Positions 2,875-11,699 of a stretch of 64,000 nt of DNA are shown one piece after another; positions within the stretch are counted from its first letter, which is position 1; each line of letters begins with the position of its first letter. The position numbers and the translations under genes were made by a program. The notes beneath the pieces are model-generated. The model saw only the letters and a program-made list of their open reading frames with translations, did not search any database and was not told the origin of the DNA. Source of the stretch: Terriglobia bacterium (GTDB taxonomy: Bacteria > Acidobacteriota > Terriglobia > Bryobacterales > UBA6623); the NCBI GenBank assembly GCA_963824095.1, contig CAWGNS010000009.1, positions 348,272 through 412,271 on the forward strand, given 5' to 3'.

Positions 2875-2957
2875 GTGTGGGGCCCCACGTCGCGACGAAT
2901 CGCGACGCGGCAAACCTGGAGGTTCGCGCCAGGGGTGCGGTCTCTTGCCTCTGTGCC
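2875..2957 (+). repeat. repeat family A (about 80 nt dispersed intergenic element), copy 1
   Basis: gtgtggggccccacGTCGCGAcgaaTCGCGACgcggcaaacctggaggttcgcgcc...ctctgtgcc. Close matches at 20412, 38498, 58912 (opposite orientation) and a partial at 40622. Confidence 0.85.
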
Positions 2958-3259
2958 TCAAGCCCCCACCCAAGAGCCGCCCCCACCCCGTCCCAGGGGA
3001 CTGCCCTACTCCGTTTAAGGTCTTCGCCCAAATTACACTGCGCCGTTGGGGGGACCACAATCGAGAAAGGGCAAGGAAGTTGTGCGGCAGCCGGGCGCCT
3101 GCGTGCGCCCTATCGGTAACCCTTCCTCGAGCCGCGTGCTATGGCCGCAAGTCCCAGGGTTGTCCGTACGCTTCCCGAGGAGTCCTACAGGCGTTCCCGG
3201 CAATCTCCGCCCCAGACCCATGGCGGACAAACTCCGCCCGCGACCGAACGTCAGGCCCG

Positions 3260-4045
3260 ATGGTGCTGGATAACGTCATCCCGCGAAGCCCGCAACCCGA
3301 GCTGGAGCGCCCCAAGGCCCGCCGCCGCGGCATTCTCGCGGCCTGCGGCGCGCTAGCCCTATTGGCCGGCGGCTGGTCCCCCGCGCGGGCCGGTACCCCC
3401 GGAAGGGCCGAGATCCACGGCGCCATCCGCATCACCAAGCGCCTTACCAAACGTCCCGTGGCGCCGGTCTCCACTGCCTATCACCGCGGCGTCACCGTGC
3501 AGCCGCCGAGTTCCGACGAAGACTTCGTAAAGGCCGAGCTGGACCGCGTCGCCATTTACCTGGAGAGCGAGCAGTCTCTCCCCAGCGCCCCCAGAACCGC
3601 GACCTTGCAGCAAAAAGACCGCAGCTTCGTGGAAGACACGGTCGTCATCCCGGCCGGGTCGACCGTCTCCTTCCCCAACCTCGACCCGATCTTCCACAAC
3701 GTGTTCTCACTCTCGCGTGCGAAGTCGTTCGACCTGGGCAACTATCCCCAGAACCATACGCGCACGGTCACCTTTCCCAGGCCGGGCATCGTGCGCGTCT
3801 ACTGCCATCTCCACCCCAACATGAGCGCGTCGATCGTGGTCACGCCCAATCGCTGGGCCGTCAAGCCCGACGACCAGGGAAACTTCCGCCTCAGCGACGT
3901 GCCGCCGGGCAGGCACACGGTGGTGGTGTGGCACAAGTCGGCCGGATTCTTTCAGGAACCCGTCACTCTGACGGCGGGCCAGAGCGTCGAGTTGGACTTC
4001 ACGATTCCGGTGGGGGCCAGCTCGCCGTCCCACGCGGAGCCATGA
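3260..4045 (+). CDS. Tat-signal periplasmic cupredoxin-like protein with C-terminal CarboxypepD_reg-like beta-sandwich
   Basis: ORF 2828..4045(+). The 5' part runs through repeat A1, so start placed at ATG 3260. RRRGILAACGALALLAGG twin-arginine-like signal. Candidate type-1 Cu ligand pattern FHNVF...CHLHPNM. C-terminal GNFRLSDVPPGRHTVVVWH. Confidence 0.6.
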   Translation: MVLDNVIPRSPQPELERPKARRRGILAACGALALLAGGWSPARAGTPGRAEIHGAIRITKRLTKRPVAPVSTAYHRGVTVQPPSSDEDFVKAELDRVAIYLESEQSLPSAPRTATLQQKDRSFVEDTVVIPAGSTVSFPNLDPIFHNVFSLSRAKSFDLGNYPQNHTRTVTFPRPGIVRVYCHLHPNMSASIVVTPNRWAVKPDDQGNFRLSDVPPGRHTVVVWHKSAGFFQEPVTLTAGQSVELDFTIPVGASSPSHAEP

Positions 4046-5736
4046 CCGTGCCCTTCGCAGTCCGGGTGTTCGTGCTCTCGTTCGCGCCGCTGTGCATGCT
4101 GCTGATCGGCAGCTTCTGGTCCATCCAGTACATGGTCGGCCAGCAGGTCAAAAACGGCCTGCGCAACTCGCTGCGCCAGAGCCACGCCTTCGTCTCGCGC
4201 GTGCGCACCAACTACGAGCTGCAAAACAGCCGCCTGCTCACCGTGCTCGCCGAAAACCCCAGCCTCAAGGCTGGCTTCGACCTGGTGCGGCTGGAGCGCG
4301 ACAATCGCGGCGCGCAGCGCACGCTCGAAGATCAGTTGCACGAGCTGAGCGAATCGCTGGGCTTCGACCTGATGGCGGCCGCCGACACCAACGACCGGCT
4401 GCAGGCCGGCGTCGTGCGCGTCCGCGGCCAGCTCACCCACATCGACCTCGACCGCGCCCCGCCACTCAAGGAGGGCGCCGTTTCCTTCGGCGACTCGATC
4501 TACGTGCTGGCCCGCATTCCGGTCAACCTCGAGCACGAGAGCCTCGGCAGCCTGTTCGTCGGGCGCGTCTTCGACGTCTCGGAGTTCACCACCCCCACCG
4601 TGCTGACGCATGACGGCAAGGTGGTGCTGTCGAACCTGCCGGGCGTCCGCGCCGCCGAGCTGGAAAGCGGGCTGCAGCCGTGCTCTCCGCAGGAGGAATG
4701 CGAGGTCTCGCTGCGCAACGAAACCTATCTTTGCCTGCCGCTGGAAAGCATCCGCCTGGGGGACGGCTACGTGCTGCGCAGCCTGCAGTCGGTCGACGCC
4801 GCCAGCCGGCCGCTGCGCGCCGTGGTGCAGCAGGTGTTTCTGGTGGCCGGGACGCTCGCGCTGCTGGCGGTCTCGGTGCTGTCGCTGCTTTCCTCCAAGG
4901 GCATCGTCAAGCCTCTCACGGGTCTGATCACGCGATTAAGAGAAAGCGAAAGCAGCGGCGTGCTGCCGACCTTCGAAACCTCCTCGTCGACGCGCGAGGT
5001 GAATCAGTTGGTCGACGCTTTCAACCGCGCCGCAACCGCCATCACCGACGCCCGCCAGCGGCTGAGCTTCGCCTACCGCGAATTCACGCAGTCGCTTTCG
5101 AGCGCCATCGACGCCCGCGACGTCTACACCGCCGGCCATAGCCGCCGCGTCTCGACCTACGCCGTCGCGATCGCGCGCGAGATGAAACTGCCCGACGAGG
5201 AACTCGAAATCATTCGCGAAGGAGCCTTGCTGCACGACGTCGGCAAGATCGGCATCTCCGACCGCGTGCTGCAAAAGCCCGGCAATCTCTCGCCCGAGGA
5301 ATTCGAGTTGATCCGGCGCCACCCGCTGATCGGCCGCCGTATCATCGAGCGCGTCGAAGGTCTCGCGCCTTACTTGAACATCGTCGAGCTGCACCACGAG
5401 AACTATGACGGTACCGGCTACCCCTGGCAGTTGGTGGGCGAAAAGACGCCGCGCGACGCGCGTGTCATCCACGTCGCCGACGCCTACGACGCGATGACCT
5501 CCGACCGCCCCTACCGCAAGGGCATGAAGCCCGATCAGGCCCTGAGCATTCTCAAGGCCAACGCCGGAACGCAATTCGATCCCGACGTCGTCGCCGCTTT
5601 CGTGCGGCTGCACGGCCGCGTTGTGCAAGACGAAAAACGCTCCGCCGAAACGCCCTATGAGCCCGACCTCGACCGCCTGAGCCGCGCGCTGGGTTCGGCC
5701 GCCGATGTCGACGCCACCAAGGAGCTCATGTCATGA
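4042..5736 (+). CDS. HD-GYP domain c-di-GMP phosphodiesterase with periplasmic sensor domain and HAMP
   Basis: ATG 4042 overlaps the upstream stop (ATGA). Two TM helices flank a ~260-aa extracytoplasmic region. HD-GYP signature HDVGKIGI...HHENYDGTGYP...HVADAYDAMTSDRPYR. Confidence 0.85.
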   Translation: MTVPFAVRVFVLSFAPLCMLLIGSFWSIQYMVGQQVKNGLRNSLRQSHAFVSRVRTNYELQNSRLLTVLAENPSLKAGFDLVRLERDNRGAQRTLEDQLHELSESLGFDLMAAADTNDRLQAGVVRVRGQLTHIDLDRAPPLKEGAVSFGDSIYVLARIPVNLEHESLGSLFVGRVFDVSEFTTPTVLTHDGKVVLSNLPGVRAAELESGLQPCSPQEECEVSLRNETYLCLPLESIRLGDGYVLRSLQSVDAASRPLRAVVQQVFLVAGTLALLAVSVLSLLSSKGIVKPLTGLITRLRESESSGVLPTFETSSSTREVNQLVDAFNRAATAITDARQRLSFAYREFTQSLSSAIDARDVYTAGHSRRVSTYAVAIAREMKLPDEELEIIREGALLHDVGKIGISDRVLQKPGNLSPEEFELIRRHPLIGRRIIERVEGLAPYLNIVELHHENYDGTGYPWQLVGEKTPRDARVIHVADAYDAMTSDRPYRKGMKPDQALSILKANAGTQFDPDVVAAFVRLHGRVVQDEKRSAETPYEPDLDRLSRALGSAADVDATKELMS

Positions 5737-5752
5737 CCGGGGGCCGCCTGTC

Positions 5753-6835
5753 ATGAAACCGCGAGCGGCTGCCTGCCTGGCCGTTTTGCTCTGGCCGCTG
5801 CTCGTGCCGGCCCAGGAAAGCGTCGCCGGCTTCGAGATGCCGCTCACCCTCAGCGGCGGCGCGTTCGTCACCGAGCGCACCGAGCAGCCGCCCCGCTCGG
5901 CCTCGAGCTTCACCGCGGGCACGCGCCTGGTCGCCTACCCGACCTTGCGCCTCAACGAGCACTGGTTTTTCTCGGGCGCCGTGCAGTTCCACTCGCGCCC
6001 TTACTATTTTCAGGAACTGGGGACGCAAGGCTACGGCGCCGAGGTCGACGTGCTGCAGGCCTACGCCGGATACGAGCGTTTCTGGGGACGCAACGTCGTC
6101 ACGATTCGCGCCGGGCAGCTCACCTCGGCCTTCGGATCGTTCCTGCTGCGCTACGACGACGCCGTCAATCCGCTGATCGATCTGCCGCTTTCCTACGGCT
6201 ACTACACTTCGCCGGTGACGAACCTGGGACTGGTGGGCGCGCAGGCCGACGTTACCCTCAACCACCTCGACCTGCGGGCGCAGTTCACCAACAGCTCGCC
6301 CGCCAATCGCCGCAGCATCTTCGACCCCGACCAATACGGCACCTGGACCGGCGGCGTCGGCTACACGATTGTGCAAGGCCTGCGCGTCGGCGTCTCCGCG
6401 TATCGAGGCCCCTACCTCGATCGCGAATTCCCCTTCTATTTCCCCGGCGAGCGCCCGCCGAAAGAACTGCCGGCCAGCGGCTACGGCCTCGAAGGCGAAA
6501 TGGCGCGCGGCCACTGGAACTTTCACGCCGAGGCGCACCGCTTTCAGAGCGCCTACAAAGCGATTCCGACCGTCAACCGTTTCTTCGCCTACGGAGAAGC
6601 CCAATACGCCTTCCGCCCGCGCTGGTATGCCGCGGTGCGCGTCAACCACGGCCACTCGAACGTATCGCGCGACCAGAACGTCTACGAATTCGCCATCGGC
6701 TACCGCCCCAACCGCTTTCAACTCGTTAAAGTCGGCTATGAACTCGTCAAAGGCTCGCCGCGCGATGGGGCCCCCGGAGACGTCTTCGCGATTCAACTGG
6801 TGACGACCCTGAGGCCGATCTCCAAAGCCTGGTGA
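5753..6835 (+). CDS. putative outer-membrane beta-barrel protein
   Basis: ORF 5705..6835(+), start at ATG 5753 (MKPRAAACLAVLLWPLLVPAQE signal peptide). Alternating beta-strand pattern rich in Y/G/R, terminal aromatic (..ISKAW). 17 nt after the HD-GYP stop. Confidence 0.55.
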   Translation: MKPRAAACLAVLLWPLLVPAQESVAGFEMPLTLSGGAFVTERTEQPPRSASSFTAGTRLVAYPTLRLNEHWFFSGAVQFHSRPYYFQELGTQGYGAEVDVLQAYAGYERFWGRNVVTIRAGQLTSAFGSFLLRYDDAVNPLIDLPLSYGYYTSPVTNLGLVGAQADVTLNHLDLRAQFTNSSPANRRSIFDPDQYGTWTGGVGYTIVQGLRVGVSAYRGPYLDREFPFYFPGERPPKELPASGYGLEGEMARGHWNFHAEAHRFQSAYKAIPTVNRFFAYGEAQYAFRPRWYAAVRVNHGHSNVSRDQNVYEFAIGYRPNRFQLVKVGYELVKGSPRDGAPGDVFAIQLVTTLRPISKAW

Positions 6836-6862
6836 ATTGCCCAAAACCGACAGGGTGCTCGA

Positions 6863-6944
6863 GGGGAACAGTCACCGCGTTTCGCACCTGAGGTTTTCAG
6901 AGGCTTACAGGATTCGCGGGGTGCGAAGCACGGTGACTGTCCCC
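6863..6944. repeat. repeat family C: two inverted copies forming a long hairpin
   Basis: ggggaacagtcaccgcgtttcgcacc (6863-6888) against ggtgcgaagcacggtgactgtcccc (6920-6944). Unit GGGGACAGTCACCGTGYTTCGCRCCCCGCGAATCCTG also at 47202 and 17431. Confidence 0.8.
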
Positions 6945-6966
6945 CTCAGGCAAAGCCGCGAACTCA

Positions 6967-6998
6967 ACAAACAGAGCCGCAGGCGTAAGCCCGCGGGC
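6967..6998 (+). repeat. repeat family D copy
   Basis: aacaaacagagccgcaggcgtaagcccgcgggc. Inverted partner at 7130-7166. Related copies at 33682, 38690, 49492, 51843, 53181, 53260. Confidence 0.75.
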
Positions 6999-7129
6999 CG
7001 AGTCGCCACAGAAGCCAGGGGCGAAGCGCCGCGAACTTGTTTCCGCCAACATTGCCAACGCGCCAGAAACCGGCATGGGGTTCTGCTGCGCCCCCCACAG
7101 CCGCAGGAGTTCGTAACCGCCCGGGGGCT

Positions 7130-7166
7130 TCCGCCCGCGGCTCTGTCTCGTTGTTTGTGGCGACGG
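7130..7166 (-). repeat. repeat family D copy (inverted relative to 6967)
   Basis: ccgggggcttccgcccgcggctctgtctcgttgtttg is the reverse complement of the caaacaacgagacagagccgcgggcggaagccc type. Confidence 0.75.
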
Positions 7167-7203
7167 TGCGGCAGGCCGGCGACGGTGCGGCAGGCCCCGG
7201 GCC

Positions 7204-8514
7204 TCAAGGCGATCCTACGAATTGCCCCGCCTGACCGCGAGCCGCGATGCTCCGTAGATGATCAACCCCAGTACGGCGGCGATCCCGGCGTCGCGAGCCT
7301 GCCCGGCGGTGGCGTTCGACGCCAGCCAGGCGATCAGCAGCAGCGAGACGACGCACACCGCGGTTCCCGCCGGCGTCCGGAATCGCGCCGGCGACGCCCC
7401 GGGCGTGCGGCGCAACACCGGCAAGGCCAGGCAGGTCGTGGCATAGGCCACCAGCCGCGCCAAGCACACTCACCGTTGCGGCGTAGGCGAAGGTTCCCGT
7501 CAGCGTGAGCCCCAGCATGATCGCCGCCGTCGCAACGATCGCGTTGTGCGGCGTGTGAAAGCGGCGATGCGTGGCGGCGACGAAGCGCGGCAGTTCGCGC
7601 CGCTCGGCCATCGCGAACGGCAGCCGCGGCGACACGAGCATCGCTACGTTAAGATTGCCGAAAATCGAAATCAGGGCCCCGGCGGAAAGAATCGTTGCGC
7701 CCAAGGGCCCCAGGAAGCGTCCGGCGGCGTCGGTCAGCGGCCGGCTCGAAGTGGCCAGTTCGGGCAGCGTGCCGACCGCGACGAGTTGGATCAGCAGGTA
7801 GAACAAGCACACCACCGCCAGGCCCAGCAGCAGCGCGCGCGGCAGATCGTGCATCGGGTCGCGCTGCTCGCCGCTGGGGATCGCCGCCATCTCGAAACCC
7901 GTGAAAGCGTACACCAGCAACAGCACGGAGACCGAAAAATCACCGTATCCGGGAAGCGCGCCAAGAGCCAGCCGCGCCGGGTCGATAAAGAAGCAACCCG
8001 CGGCGATGAACAGCGTCAGCGGGACGAGTTTCGCCGCCGTCATCACGTTGCTGAGCACCGCCGCGTCGCGTACGCCCACCACATTGACGACCGTCAGCAC
8101 GACGATGACGACCGTGATGATCGTCACTCGTAATACCCCTGTTTCCGCCGCCGGAACAAAGAAAGCGAGGTAGGAGACCAGCAGGTTGCAGTTGGCCGCA
8201 AAGCCAGTCACCCGCGCGATCCAGGTCATCCAGCCGACCTCGAAACCCGCCAGCGGACCGAACGCCGCCCCGGCATACAAATACGGGCCGCCGGTATCGC
8301 CAAAGCGGCTGCTTACCTCGGCGAAGCACAGCACGATCATCACGACCGCGAGCCCGCAGACCACAAATGCAATCAGGCTATAGGAGCCGATCAGCGCGAA
8401 TACCTTGGACGGCAAACCGAAGATGCCGGCGCCGATGACGGCATTGATGGTCAGCGCGATCAGGTCCCATCTGCGGATCGCGCGCAGCAGACCTTCGCGG
8501 GTTGGTTGTTCCAT
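7204..8514 (-). pseudogene. APC-family amino acid permease with apparent frameshift near 7462-7470
   Basis: ORF 7204..8565(-), start ATG 8514 (MEQPTREGLLRAIRRWDLIALTINAVIGAGIFGLP). After ...TFAYAATVS this frame becomes Arg/Gly-rich noise. The permease-like C-terminus (ARLVAYATTCLALPVLRR...) continues in ORF 7215..7469(-), offset by 1 nt. Confidence 0.7.
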
Positions 8515-8821
8515 GGGTAATTCAGAGCGGGTAGTGCCACATGAGGCTGGGCGACGCTTCGGCAAGGTTCAAGACCCGGCGCCGCGTGCCGAGGACTGGC
8601 ATTGTACCGTGACGGAAGGATTCAGGCGGGAACAAATGCCGGCGGGGGGAAGAAGAAGTAGGAGGGTAACCCCGATCGAAGCCGAAGTCCCATCCAGTGG
8701 CGCGGCCCCGAATCCGACGTTCCCCAAGGGCCCACGAAAAACTCCAACGACAGCCAACAAAAACGCCAGGCACAAACACGAGCACCGCCAGTTCCGTCGG
8801 CGGACACACGGTCCAGCCCGG

Positions 8822-10438
8822 CTACTCATCCAAGCCAAACACAAACAACCCCCGCCCGGCGGTAACCGCAATCCGCTGGCCGCCTTCGCTCTCATAGCTG
8901 ATCGGGTTCGAACGCATCGACCCACCGGCCTGGAAATGCCACACCACTTTGCCGTTGGTCGCATCGAGGGCAAAAATGTCGCCTTCGCCGGTGCCGCCGA
9001 ACACCAGCCCGCCCGCCGTCGATAGGACGCCGCCGCCGGGCGGCGAATGCAGCGGAAACTCCCACTTCAGATCACCCGTCTCGGGCTGGAACGCTCGAAT
9101 CGCCCCGAAGGCCTCTTCACCCGGCACCTTCTGCGCCCCGCCGCCGTTGTACAGGCTGCCGGCCTTAAACTCCGCCGCACCCTTGTAGTAGACGTTACCC
9201 ATTTCTAGCGCCGCCACAAAAAACAGATGTAGTTCGGGGCTGTAGGCCGGGCTCTGCCAGTTCGTGCCGCCGGACAGACTCGGGTAGACCGTATTGCCCT
9301 CTGCAGTTGGAGAAGTATCCGGCAACACCATCGGCCTGCCGTTGTCGTCGAGCCCACTCGCCCAGGTCTGCTTCACGTATGCCTTGCCGCTCACAAATTT
9401 CCCGCTCTCGCGGTCGAGCACGTAGTAAAAGCCGTTGCGATTGGCGAATAGCACCAGCCGGCGCCGCTCACCGCGCACCTCGCCGTCGGCCAGCACGGGA
9501 ACCTGCACCGAATCCCAATCGTGGGTGTCGTGCGGCGTGAACTGGAAATACCACTTCAGTTTGCCGGTATCCGCGTCGAGCGCGACGATGCAGTCGGAAT
9601 ACAGGTTGTCGCCCCCGCGGACGTCGCCGTTCCAATCCGGACCTGGATTGCCCGTCCCCCAATACACGAGGTTCGTTTCGGGATCGTAGGCGCCCGTGAC
9701 CCAGGTCGTAGCCGAGCCCTGCTTCCAGCTTTCACCGGCCCAGGTTTCGGCGCCGGGCTCACCGGCAACAGGGACGGTCCAGAAGCGCCACAGGCGGTCG
9801 CCGGTCTTGGCGTCATAAGCGTCGAGAAAGCCGCGCACACCGTACTCGCCGCCGGCCATGCCGAGAATCACTTTGCCCTGGAGCGCCAGCGGCGCTGCCG
9901 TCATCGAAATGCCGACCTTGTAATCGGCCACCTCGACGTCCCAGCGCACCTGCCCGCTGCGGGCGTCGAGCGCCACCAGGTGCGCGTCGAGCGTGCCGAT
10001 GTAGACCATGTCGTCGAGCACCGCCACGCCGCGGTTCACGCGGCCGCAGCACAGCGGCATGCTGTCGGGAATTTTTCGCTCGTACTTCCACAGCGGCCGG
10101 CCGGTTCGCGCGTCGAGCGCCGTCACGTCGCTGGGCGGCTCGCTGATGTACATGATGTCGCCATCGACCAGCGGCGTCATCTCGAAACCGTGGGTCGTCG
10201 AGGTCTGATAGACCCACAGCGGCCGCAGCCGCGCGGCGTTGTCGGGCGTGATCTGGCGCAGCGGGGAATGCCGTTGCCCGAGGTAATTTCCCGAGTAGGT
10301 CAGCCAGTTGCCGGGCTCCGACGCGGCCGCGTCGCGGATTCGCTCGTAGCTCACCTGGCCCGCCGCCGGTTTCACCACGAAGCCCAGCGCCACGAGCCCC
10401 AGCGCCAATGCCAAACCCCAGCACGCCCGCTTGCTCAT
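8822..10438 (-). CDS. PQQ-dependent dehydrogenase, methanol/ethanol (type I quinoprotein) family
   Basis: Signal peptide. NWLTYSGNYLGQRHSPL, vicinal Cys pair PLCCGRVNRG, GGEYGVRG, TPHDTHDWDSV, repeated propeller W-motifs. Confidence 0.85.
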   Translation of the reverse strand: MSKRACWGLALALGLVALGFVVKPAAGQVSYERIRDAAASEPGNWLTYSGNYLGQRHSPLRQITPDNAARLRPLWVYQTSTTHGFEMTPLVDGDIMYISEPPSDVTALDARTGRPLWKYERKIPDSMPLCCGRVNRGVAVLDDMVYIGTLDAHLVALDARSGQVRWDVEVADYKVGISMTAAPLALQGKVILGMAGGEYGVRGFLDAYDAKTGDRLWRFWTVPVAGEPGAETWAGESWKQGSATTWVTGAYDPETNLVYWGTGNPGPDWNGDVRGGDNLYSDCIVALDADTGKLKWYFQFTPHDTHDWDSVQVPVLADGEVRGERRRLVLFANRNGFYYVLDRESGKFVSGKAYVKQTWASGLDDNGRPMVLPDTSPTAEGNTVYPSLSGGTNWQSPAYSPELHLFFVAALEMGNVYYKGAAEFKAGSLYNGGGAQKVPGEEAFGAIRAFQPETGDLKWEFPLHSPPGGGVLSTAGGLVFGGTGEGDIFALDATNGKVVWHFQAGGSMRSNPISYESEGGQRIAVTAGRGLFVFGLDE

Positions 10439-11211
10439 TGCTCACCTCGCAGCGAAACCAGGTAGGCCACCACATCGGTCAACTCGGCCTCGCTCAACGT
10501 GCCGCCGTAGGCCGGCATCGGCGACTTGCCGCGCTGCTTTTCGATCGTGGACAACTCGTCCTTGCGGAACGAATGCAGTTGGCCGGAGTAGTCGCGGATC
10601 TGAATCGTGAAGGTGTCTTCGTTGAGGCGGACGCCCGTCAGCGCCTGGCCCTCGCGCGTCACCAGGCGCACTTGCAAGAATTCCTGGGGAATCTCGGCCT
10701 CGGGTTCGAGCAGCGCGCGCTTCAAATAGAGCACGCTGCGCCGCGCGCCCACGTCGCTCAGCTCCGGACCCGCCAGCCCGCCGGGAGTCTCGGCCGTATG
10801 GCACGAAAGACAATCCCCCTTGCCGCGAAAAATGCGCTCGCCCGCGACCGGATCGCCGGGAACCTCCTCGGGCGCGCGCTTCCCGAGGGTCTCGACGAAG
10901 TTGGCGACCAGCCACACCTCGCGTCCGTTCATCTGCCAGGCGCTGGGCATTTCCGTGCCCTCCACGCCGTCGCGGATCAGGCGGTAAAGCTCAAGGGGGT
11001 TTGAGGCGCGCCGCAACTTGGGCCGCGCCAGGTTGGCGCCGCGCCCGCCGTCGCCGTGCGGCCCGTGGCAGGGGGCGCACTGGCTCTGAAACAGCGCTTC
11101 GCCGAGCGTCAGGTTTTGGGGAGTGGGGGGCAGCCGCGGCGGCACCGGTTCCTCGTCCTGTTGTGCCCAACAAAGCGTACAGAACAGCGCCAATCCCAAA
11201 GCAAACCGCAT
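10435..11211 (-). CDS. dihaem c-type cytochrome
   Basis: ORF 10435..11454(-), start at ATG 11211 (MRFALGLALFCTLCWA signal). Two CxxCH motifs (CAPCH, CLSCH). Its stop overlaps the PQQ gene start (ATGA at 10435-10438). Confidence 0.8.
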   Translation of the reverse strand: MRFALGLALFCTLCWAQQDEEPVPPRLPPTPQNLTLGEALFQSQCAPCHGPHGDGGRGANLARPKLRRASNPLELYRLIRDGVEGTEMPSAWQMNGREVWLVANFVETLGKRAPEEVPGDPVAGERIFRGKGDCLSCHTAETPGGLAGPELSDVGARRSVLYLKRALLEPEAEIPQEFLQVRLVTREGQALTGVRLNEDTFTIQIRDYSGQLHSFRKDELSTIEKQRGKSPMPAYGGTLSEAELTDVVAYLVSLRGEQ

Positions 11212-11699
11212 AGGCCCCCGGGGATAGAAGAATGTCTGGCGCTGGAGTATAGCACGAAATTCCAGTGCCAATCGCACGCAATTACCGGCGTCGCACCGCG
11301 CCCCAGGCCCTGCGCGGCGTCCCTTTGGCGGGCCGCCATCCACCGCTGTGGCGACTACGCGACCCGCCAACCGTATGGAGCTACGATGAACAGAACGCCA
11401 ACCGATTCGGTACCCTGAGCCATGCGCAACAGATCGCGCCGCGCCGATTGCCACGCGGAGCCGCGAGCGTCAGCTTGCGCTGAGAGCTGGACGGCGAGAT
11501 CGTGTTTTCTAGCCGGACGGTGGTTCCTGGGGCGGTACTTGGCGCGGCCCGCGCCCGCGGTTCCGAGAGACGCCGCCAACCGTTGGCTCGCCGGTTGTTC
11601 GCCCGCCGGCGAGGGTTTGTGCTGCTTCAGCCCGCTGCTCAGGCCTGCGGGCCGGTTCTGGCGCGGTCTTGTTTTTCGAACGCTCGCACACCACTACGT

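Follow-up and report, generated by a model that had tools for sequence, protein, structure and literature searches.

Envelope signalling under the control of accessory proteins is known, and its described examples form the background for the three-gene unit treated here, which lies at positions 3260-6835 of the window, i.e. of the whole analysed stretch of 64,000 nucleotides from a Terriglobia bacterium (contig CAWGNS010000009.1). YfiBNR (TpbB) of Pseudomonas and Escherichia coli and HmsCDE of Yersinia pestis consist, like the trio, of a periplasmic regulator, an inner-membrane enzyme with a periplasmic sensor/HAMP part and an outer-membrane protein. In the NspS-MbaA system of Vibrio cholerae, the gene of a periplasmic binding protein directly precedes that of a membrane enzyme of cyclic diguanosine monophosphate (c-di-GMP) metabolism, and the binding protein serves the enzyme as co-sensor via the periplasmic domain; NspS is a PotD-like polyamine binder, MbaA is a GGDEF-EAL protein, and the pair has no outer-membrane partner or metal site. 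For HmsC/HmsD it was reported that a redox-sensitive periplasmic accessory protein binds and controls the periplasmic domain of the c-di-GMP enzyme, and in E. coli PdeC, an EAL phosphodiesterase with a CSS domain, a periplasmic cysteine pair acts as redox switch (PMC8846402). The dCache-HD-GYP architecture has already been catalogued, for example in Thermotoga TM1682, and the 2021 survey concerned states that none of these extracytoplasmic-sensor HD-GYP proteins has been characterized by experiment (Galperin & Chou, bioRxiv 10.1101/2021.11.05.467447).

The likeness of the trio to YfiBNR and HmsCDE is one of layout only, with no homology in any part. The regulator is a predicted type-1 copper cupredoxin instead of a YfiR-type protein, and the enzyme carries an HD-GYP domain, or a histidine kinase (HK) in variants of the module, where YfiBNR and HmsCDE have a GGDEF cyclase (YfiN). 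The sensor domain is, unlike theirs, of the dCache fold according to its structure model. The outer-membrane partner is probably a 16-strand porin-like barrel and not an OmpA-like lipoprotein such as YfiB, the outer-membrane component of YfiBNR. Because no part is homologous, the trio is not a member of the YfiBNR/HmsCDE, NspS-MbaA or PdeC systems. With TM1682-type proteins it shares the combination of a dCache domain outside the cytoplasm and an HD-GYP domain at the C-terminus; the survey passages on this architecture make no mention of obligatory cupredoxin or porin partners (bioRxiv 10.1101/2021.11.05.467447). We propose, and give it an even chance, that the trio is a conserved three-component sensory module spanning the envelope, in which the cupredoxin acts as accessory co-sensor of the dCache domain. 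Our literature searches yielded no paper on a c-di-GMP or histidine-kinase sensor that is linked to a cupredoxin. What is probably new is the combination; control by accessory proteins is known and the folds are recognizable.

Gene order and exchange of the output domain

The unit consists of three genes:

3260-4045, forward strand: gene 1, 261 aa, exported two-domain protein with a cupredoxin domain and a CarboxypepD_reg beta-sandwich (predicted)
4042-5736, forward strand: gene 2, 564 aa, predicted inner-membrane sensor with transmembrane (TM) helix, dCache domain, second TM helix, HAMP-like linker and HD-GYP domain
5753-6835, forward strand: gene 3, 360 aa, probable porin-like 16-strand outer-membrane beta-barrel

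An earlier note on this DNA, made from the letters alone, had described three tightly packed open reading frames (ORFs). Indeed, the stop of gene 1 and the start of gene 2 overlap in an ATGA at 4042-4045, and genes 2 and 3 are separated by 16 nt (5737-5752), one less than the 17 nt counted there. Packing of this kind is of the translational-coupling type. The flanking genes, one MscS-like (1671-2888) and one for an amino-acid permease (7204-8565), are both on the reverse strand, and the trio is therefore a free-standing three-gene unit. Homologue names suggest Bryobacterales-type Acidobacteriota.

We scanned one genome per GTDB species and obtained 380 loci with a gene 1 relative, of which the best 80 were read; 72 of these were informative, with at least 3.6 kb downstream. 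The locus scans used the alignments A2 (pattern DPIFHNVF) and A6 (pattern DPFFHN), since the 44-sequence alignment of gene 1 discussed below (A1) was too variable for such a search. The colinear order of cupredoxin, dCache-HD-GYP sensor and gene-3-like barrel is present in 65 of the 72 informative species-level Acidobacteriota loci, an arrangement far beyond chance, so that conservation of the neighbourhood, on which the earlier note had let its proposal depend, was found. Four other loci (L009, L010, L015, L049) carry HisKA-HATPase instead of HD-GYP and keep the cupredoxin, the dCache domain and the barrel, and in one locus the sensor ORF is truncated and the barrel missing. All parts can still be seen in five additional truncated loci.

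A distant subfamily of gene 1, of the DPFFHNVFS type and ~30-40% identical, was found in metagenomes with more than 573 matches, the best 80 of which were read. The sensor gene follows immediately downstream in 22 of the 23 long loci, with HD-GYP output in 11 and HK output in 11. A gene-3-like porin is detectable in 18 of the long loci; in the remaining four HD-GYP loci the next gene encodes a signal-peptide protein of ~360 aa that ends in ...WARRWF.

The same cupredoxin family also occurs on plasmids of Caballeronia, Burkholderia and Comamonas, where it is named ‘methylamine utilization protein’ and retains C-x2-H-x2-M. In these Betaproteobacteria the cupredoxin gene is located 2-8 nt upstream of a dCache_3-HAMP-GGDEF-EAL gene, and is itself preceded by genes for DUF3034 and a truncated haemoglobin with signal peptide, or for DUF4394. 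The DUF3034 protein has a signal peptide and a C-terminal ...AGF and is outer-membrane-like. The cassette resembles the trio in that the gene of this cupredoxin plus beta-sandwich family is immediately followed by one for a dCache-type membrane c-di-GMP enzyme and that an outer-membrane-type protein is included. It differs from the trio in the GGDEF-EAL output, the DUF3034/DUF4394 partner, which is unrelated to gene 3, and the lack of a periplasmic cysteine pair. The Burkholderiaceae form, unlike the trio, adds a periplasmic truncated haemoglobin; this four-gene cassette (DUF3034, group 1 truncated haemoglobin with signal peptide, cupredoxin, dCache_3-HAMP-GGDEF-EAL) was seen on plasmids at L088 4467-8785, L090 3670-7883 and L091 3527-7836. 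It is unusual for a periplasmic truncated haemoglobin to accompany a blue-copper-type protein together with an enzyme of c-di-GMP metabolism, and this hints at sensing of O2 or nitric oxide (NO).

What stays constant across these loci is the set of cupredoxin, dCache domain and some outer-membrane protein; the output in the cytoplasm can be exchanged. Such a pattern would be expected if the periplasmic parts were the input device.

Some loci show rearrangements of the module. In one Bryobacterales lineage (L004/L005/L009, ~6705-9668) the gene of the HK-output sensor is split after ~residue 99 by an insertion sequence (IS) element with DDE_3 and HTH transposase genes on the opposite strand, leaving a 108-aa N-terminal fragment, and the cupredoxin gene has a separate REC-HD-GYP gene shortly before it. 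Module parts are duplicated at L077 (2354-3928, 5006-6592), L030/L031, L042 and L086; the types seen are an additional dCache-HD-GYP gene directly before that of the cupredoxin, two complete trios on separate contigs of a single metagenome-assembled genome, and a second cupredoxin-like gene nearby.

The three proteins

The following features were assigned to gene 1:

3260-3391, forward strand: signal peptide, residues 1-44, containing ARRRGIL, with predicted cleavage after ARA
3575-3841, forward strand: predicted cupredoxin domain, residues ~106-194, from the family profile against type-1 copper domains
3695-3697, 3803-3805, 3812-3814 and 3821-3823, forward strand: codons of the putative type-1 copper ligands H146, C182, H185 and M188, from the amicyanin alignment
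3842-4015, forward strand: CarboxypepD_reg-like beta-sandwich, residues ~195-252, Pfam PF13620

The motifs FHNVF (residues 145-149) and CHLHPNM (residues 182-188) had been taken for a type-1 copper ligand pattern, and the comparisons with known copper proteins bear this out. In a PDB search with the single sequence, FHNV and CHLHPNM align with the copper-ligand regions of the NirK cupredoxin domain, and ligand regions of the Nitrosopumilus type-1 copper protein 5fc9 are matched as well. The profile of 44 homologues has the type-1 copper domain of NirK (6hbe) as its best PDB match (E=3.3e-13), with 9cck (4e-10), plastocyanins, pseudoazurins and amicyanins further down, which at profile level favours a cupredoxin over a mere Ig-like fold. 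An hhalign comparison of the family with amicyanin (Prob 88%, E=3e-6) places H146, C182, H185 and M188 on His53, Cys92, His95 and Met98, with an identical short C-x2-H-x2-M loop; a plastocyanin-type HN motif is also present. Conservation of the ligands, another condition set in the earlier note, was found: C-x2-H-x2(-4)-M is present in 144 of 150 diverse representatives of 50%-identity clusters. The 44-sequence alignment (27-48% identity) shows no exchange of C182, H185 or M188 and retains H146 in at least 90% of the sequences; N147 and an FPNxD motif are invariant or nearly so. From the profile matches and the register of the ligands we conclude that gene 1, as judged by sequence, encodes a cupredoxin whose type-1 copper ligand set is complete and which has a beta-sandwich behind it. 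Its product is predicted to bind copper.

Taken alone, gene 1 passes the Pfam cutoff for CarboxypepD_reg only (PF13620, 32.3 bits, equal to the cutoff, residues 190-249), a domain that had been claimed from its appearance and is matched exactly at threshold. The gene 1 family profile also matches Ig-like repeats of NOMO2 and scaffoldin. As gene 1 is below the cutoffs of the curated hidden Markov models (HMMs), among them the NCBIfam amicyanin model (TIGR02657, 18.1 bits vs. 110), it is best described as a member of the cupredoxin superfamily outside those curated families. It resembles amicyanin, plastocyanin and pseudoazurin in the cupredoxin profile match, the ligand register and the HN motif. 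It differs from amicyanin and plastocyanin by an extra N-terminal segment of ~60 residues and the C-terminal CarboxypepD_reg beta-sandwich, and it is encoded together with a signalling receptor, in place of the dehydrogenase or photosystem partner of those proteins. The family is large, with 4,853 matches in a 90%-clustered database and, at E<=1e-3, 10,765 cluster representatives at the 50%-identity level; its current labels are ‘plastocyanin’, ‘carboxypeptidase regulatory-like domain protein’ and ‘methylamine utilization protein’, and no NCBIfam model covers it.

Twin-arginine translocation (Tat) had been read from the signal peptide. The window protein does contain the RR-bearing ARRRGIL followed by an Ala/Gly-rich h-region; a loose RR motif, however, was found in only ~8 of 120 close homologues, most of which have short Sec-type signals. 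Tat export was thus ruled out as a feature of the family, and the signal is at most a feature of the lineage of the window protein.

Other forms of the family were seen in passing. Long members of 590-1154 aa (P0352, P0356, P0381, P0405, P0408, P0425, P0437, P0467) contain 4-8 tandem cupredoxin units with C-x2-H-x2-M in each, like multi-copper ‘beads on a string’. A subfamily (P0358, P0410, P0422, P0434, P0344, P0384, P0479) has a conserved C-terminal tail, H-x-[ND]-K-x-G-x-x-Y, that is missing from the window protein. A search for proteins that join the cupredoxin to a sensor or barrel domain returned only tandem cupredoxin repeats and the doubtful P0409 (354 aa), in which a cupredoxin fragment (residues 9-145) is joined to the N-terminal part of a dCache sensor (residues 226-348); this may be a true fusion, or a frameshift or assembly artefact.

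Gene 2 has the following features:

4132-4815, forward strand: predicted periplasmic dCache-fold domain, residues 31-258, ~228 aa, between two TM helices, from AlphaFold2 (AF2) and Foldseek
residues 71-78, forward strand: conserved motif ENPSLKAG, near the end of the long dCache helix
4681-4683 and 4699-4701, forward strand: C214 and C220, a clade-invariant periplasmic C-x5-C pair
4897-5061, forward strand: HAMP-like linker, residues 286-340, from hhalign
5095-5589, forward strand: HD-GYP domain, residues 352-516, HD_5

In the AF2 model of the periplasmic domain (predicted local distance difference test, pLDDT, 86.6) a long N-terminal helix is followed by two PDC modules, the whole lying between the TM helices, and the Foldseek matches of the model include dCache sensors of amino acids, dicarboxylates and purines. 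The model thereby agrees with the suspected dCache fold, in a domain of ~228 aa and not ~260 aa as first estimated. Pfam yielded no match within residues 1-340, dCache/Cache models and HAMP included, yet hhalign aligns the sensor region to the dCache_3-HAMP-GGDEF-EAL protein of Caballeronia (Prob 94%), which suggests a divergent dCache lineage without a model of its own. For the claimed HAMP domain the outcome is divided: Pfam HAMP has no match in gene 2, but residues 286-340 align with the Pfam-HAMP region of the Caballeronia protein (hhalign Prob 94%); PF00672 is present in some homologues.

The HD-GYP domain is complete, as had been stated, with an HD_5 score of 126.2 bits (cutoff 27.2, E=1.4e-36) and an intact HHENYDGTGYP motif. 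Residues H366, H398, D399, H427, H451, H452, E453, G459-Y460-P461 and D480 are invariant in 26 homologues, and the PDB matches are V-cGAP3 (5z7c, E=4e-40), then PmGH (4mcw) and PA4781. Gene 2 is predicted to be a cyclic-dinucleotide phosphodiesterase, most likely with c-di-GMP as substrate. The cysteines C214 and C220 are invariant across the Bryobacterales/Terriglobia clade, HK variants included. In having a periplasmic cysteine pair, here C-x5-C, gene 2 is similar to PdeC, from which it differs by a dCache domain in place of the CSS loop and by HD-GYP in place of EAL.

Two features were delimited in gene 3:

5753-5812, forward strand: signal peptide, of a protein that ends in ...KAW
6122-6229, forward strand: long loop between strands 5 and 6, residues 124-159, from the AF2 secondary structure

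The outer-membrane barrel foreseen for gene 3 was reproduced by AF2 as a 16-strand barrel (pLDDT 83.9, predicted template modelling score 0.78), for which Foldseek returned porins of the general as well as the specific kind, namely OmpT, OmpU, OmpC, OmpK36, chitoporin and OprP (E~1e-11, TM 0.55-0.64). On this model the protein is probably a general-porin-like outer-membrane barrel. By sequence it stands outside the described porin families, with no Pfam, NCBIfam or PDB match, and 120 of 120 homologues among the matches listed are unnamed or ‘hypothetical’; Pfam and NCBIfam likewise have no model for the gene 1 family or the dCache lineage of gene 2. The loop 124-159 is the best conserved part, with F127, G128, Y134, D135, N139, P145, Y148, G149 and Y151 invariant, and by analogy its position would correspond to the L3 constriction loop of porins. 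The single cysteine, Cys8, is at the N-terminal edge of the signal peptide and therefore not a lipobox cysteine. Homology of gene 3 to the betaproteobacterial DUF3034 was rejected (hhalign Prob 0.1%).

Proposed sensory role of the module and other explanations

How could the three proteins act together? We hypothesize that a stimulus reaching the periplasm through or alongside the gene 3 porin would set the state of the cupredoxin, either Cu(II)/Cu(I) redox or, less likely, copper occupancy, and that this state would alter the docking of the cupredoxin on the dCache domain of gene 2. The change in the dCache domain would then pass via the HAMP-like linker and switch the HD-GYP phosphodiesterase, with consequences for c-di-GMP-dependent behaviour. 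The porin may admit the stimulus, or it may anchor the cupredoxin via the beta-sandwich, in the way in which YfiR is sequestered by YfiB. That gene 1 touches the dCache domain, what kind of signal is sensed and what the porin contributes are parts that we infer. Co-sensing had already been suggested in the earlier note, whose refuting conditions on the neighbourhood, the ligands and, at profile level, the fold of gene 1 did not come true, and it gains support from the output swaps and from the recurrence of cupredoxin with dCache in Betaproteobacteria; as a function it keeps the standing of a proposal.

A mirror-tree comparison of pairwise distances over 63 complete loci gave r=0.78 for gene 1 against the dCache domain (partial r=0.62 given HD-GYP) and r=0.62 against the HD-GYP domain of the same gene 2 protein (partial r=0.20), correlations that are confounded by shared phylogeny and rate differences. 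That gene 1 tracks the dCache domain better than HD-GYP points weakly towards a co-sensor.

Besides this confounding, several points weigh against the proposal. Type-1 copper sites classically carry electrons and do not act as sensors, and a redox partner of gene 1 was not identified. The gene 1 scores are below the Pfam cutoffs for Cupredoxin_1 (PF13473, 15.8 bits vs. 27) and Copper-bind (PF00127, 14.7 bits vs. 21.2), and the best PDB match of gene 2 is a 3'3'-cyclic GMP-AMP (cGAMP) phosphodiesterase, a c-di-GMP enzyme coming only next. One of the 72 loci (L052) has cupredoxin and barrel with no sensor between. On pSymA of Sinorhizobium meliloti a distant family member (L089 5053-7872; ligands PVLHN...CDAHGWM) adjoins SCO and metallophosphoesterase genes, near cbb3 oxidase and sox genes and with no sensor present, and hence not every member of the gene 1 family is sensor-linked. 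Finally, neither the distant subfamily nor the sensors of Betaproteobacteria possess a cysteine pair of the C214/C220 type, which would be suited to a redox relay. For this reason we downgraded the idea that the cupredoxin acts on C214/C220 as a relay: a pair absent from distant module members is not part of the core mechanism, and may instead add a disulfide switch in the Bryobacterales/Terriglobia clade.

Could the cupredoxin report copper itself? As a reversible apo/holo copper receptor and not a redox reporter, it would be loaded with copper entering via the porin, and the holo protein would switch the dCache-HD-GYP protein, changing biofilm formation or motility under copper stress or scarcity. 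The complete and conserved His/Cys/His/Met site is compatible with this idea, as are the porin with its highly conserved constriction-type loop, which could let in a specific ion, and the SCO copper chaperone gene next to the S. meliloti family member. Still, we consider it unlikely: type-1 sites hold copper very tightly and are normally permanently loaded, cop, cus and pco genes do not adjoin the trio in the window, and the periplasmic truncated haemoglobin of Burkholderiaceae points to gas or redox chemistry over metal sensing.

Even less probable, in our view, is a role of gene 1 as mononuclear copper enzyme or reactive site for NO, nitrite, a reduced metal or an organic compound arriving via the porin, whose substrate or product, and not the gene 1 protein, would be bound directly by the dCache domain. 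Nitrosopumilus 5fc9, whose copper site is open and NO-reactive, is among the best PDB sequence matches of gene 1. Chemistry of NO or O2 is suggested by the truncated haemoglobin that accompanies the family in Burkholderiaceae, and dCache domains normally bind small ligands, as do the amino-acid, dicarboxylate and purine sensors among the Foldseek matches. Nevertheless, the conserved axial Met argues for a closed classical type-1 site, gene 2 shows no recognizable dCache ligand-binding motif family (no Pfam dCache match), and gene 1 co-varies with the dCache domain.

It is improbable that the genes are merely co-transcribed, i.e. that porin and cupredoxin work as an envelope pair for electron transfer or metal handling and that the sensor shares or regulates their operon with no direct signalling by the cupredoxin. 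An HD-GYP or HK protein that lacks a DNA-binding output has no means of regulating the operon itself. The pairing of cupredoxin with a dCache-type sensor survives output swaps and crosses phyla, even with an unrelated outer-membrane partner, and gene 1 tracks dCache closer than HD-GYP. These points have to be set against L052 with its missing sensor, a gene 1 family (10,765 clusters) far larger than the recovered sensor set, and multi-repeat cupredoxin family proteins that occur without sensors. The view that gene 1 is no metalloprotein at all but a structural beta-sandwich adaptor with a relic His/Cys/His/Met set, to which the sub-cutoff Pfam scores of the single gene 1 sequence lend support, is very improbable, given four ligands and an HN motif that are (near-)invariant at only 30-48% identity, a profile match to type-1 copper domains at E=3e-13 and ligands exactly in register with amicyanin.

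Returning to the cupredoxin as co-sensor, a wider reading, which we put forward more tentatively, is that it is the primary periplasmic receptor (of redox poise, of a donor or acceptor of electrons, of NO/O2 or of copper) in a widespread, unrecognized class of envelope sensors. In this class it would dock on dCache and work with a dedicated outer-membrane protein and with interchangeable HD-GYP, GGDEF-EAL or HK outputs, in Acidobacteriota, Betaproteobacteria and other soil lineages.

The module would give the extracytoplasmic-sensor HD-GYP proteins, uncharacterized as a class according to the survey cited above, a study case. dCache domains rank with the most frequent sensor domains of bacteria, many of them without known input, and for these the trio offers a concrete hypothesis, namely a protein co-receptor with a redox-active copper centre. 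Versions with HD-GYP, GGDEF-EAL and histidine-kinase output are natural controls, and a cultured carrier, Paludibaculum fermentans (L054), is at hand. A cupredoxin family of more than 10,000 clusters at 50% identity would gain functional context, at least in part, and a way is suggested by which abundant soil Acidobacteriota could couple redox or metal conditions in the envelope to a c-di-GMP-controlled lifestyle.

Putative transcript signals and neighbouring genes

Three noncoding features border the trio:

2889-3259, no strand assigned: divergent intergenic region between the MscS-like gene (reverse strand) and gene 1 (forward strand)
6857-6951, forward strand: long near-perfect hairpin of 95 nt with arms of ~32 bp, starting 21 nt past the gene 3 stop
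6977-6996, reverse strand: smaller second terminator-like stem, downstream of the hairpin

The divergent region is presumed to hold the promoter of the operon; no sigma-70-like promoter was detected in it (2889-3259), and no Rfam family scored above threshold at the trio or its upstream region. The segment 6836-7010 with the hairpin has a fold energy of -83.6 kcal/mol (z=-5.1), and the hairpin arms occur only once within the 64-kb window. Weak sub-threshold matches to miRNA-precursor models at 6857-6951 are due to the hairpin shape. The hairpin is probably a terminator, forming the 3' end of the operon transcript, or a stabilizer of it.

The permease gene downstream (7204-8565, reverse strand) has an apparent frameshift near 7470. 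Its ORF of 453 aa matches Pfam AA_permease_2 over residues 32-368 only and has an Arg/Gly-rich tail, and a separate 84-aa ORF in another frame (7215-7469, reverse strand) is hydrophobic and resembles a permease C-terminus. Some 2 kb from the trio, at 8822-11454 on the reverse strand, a gene for a pyrroloquinoline quinone (PQQ)-dependent dehydrogenase (538 aa) extends over the stop codon of a gene for a c-type cytochrome (339 aa, with a Cytochrome_CBB3 domain). The two encode a periplasmic dehydrogenase and its electron-acceptor partner, a possible source of periplasmic redox signals.

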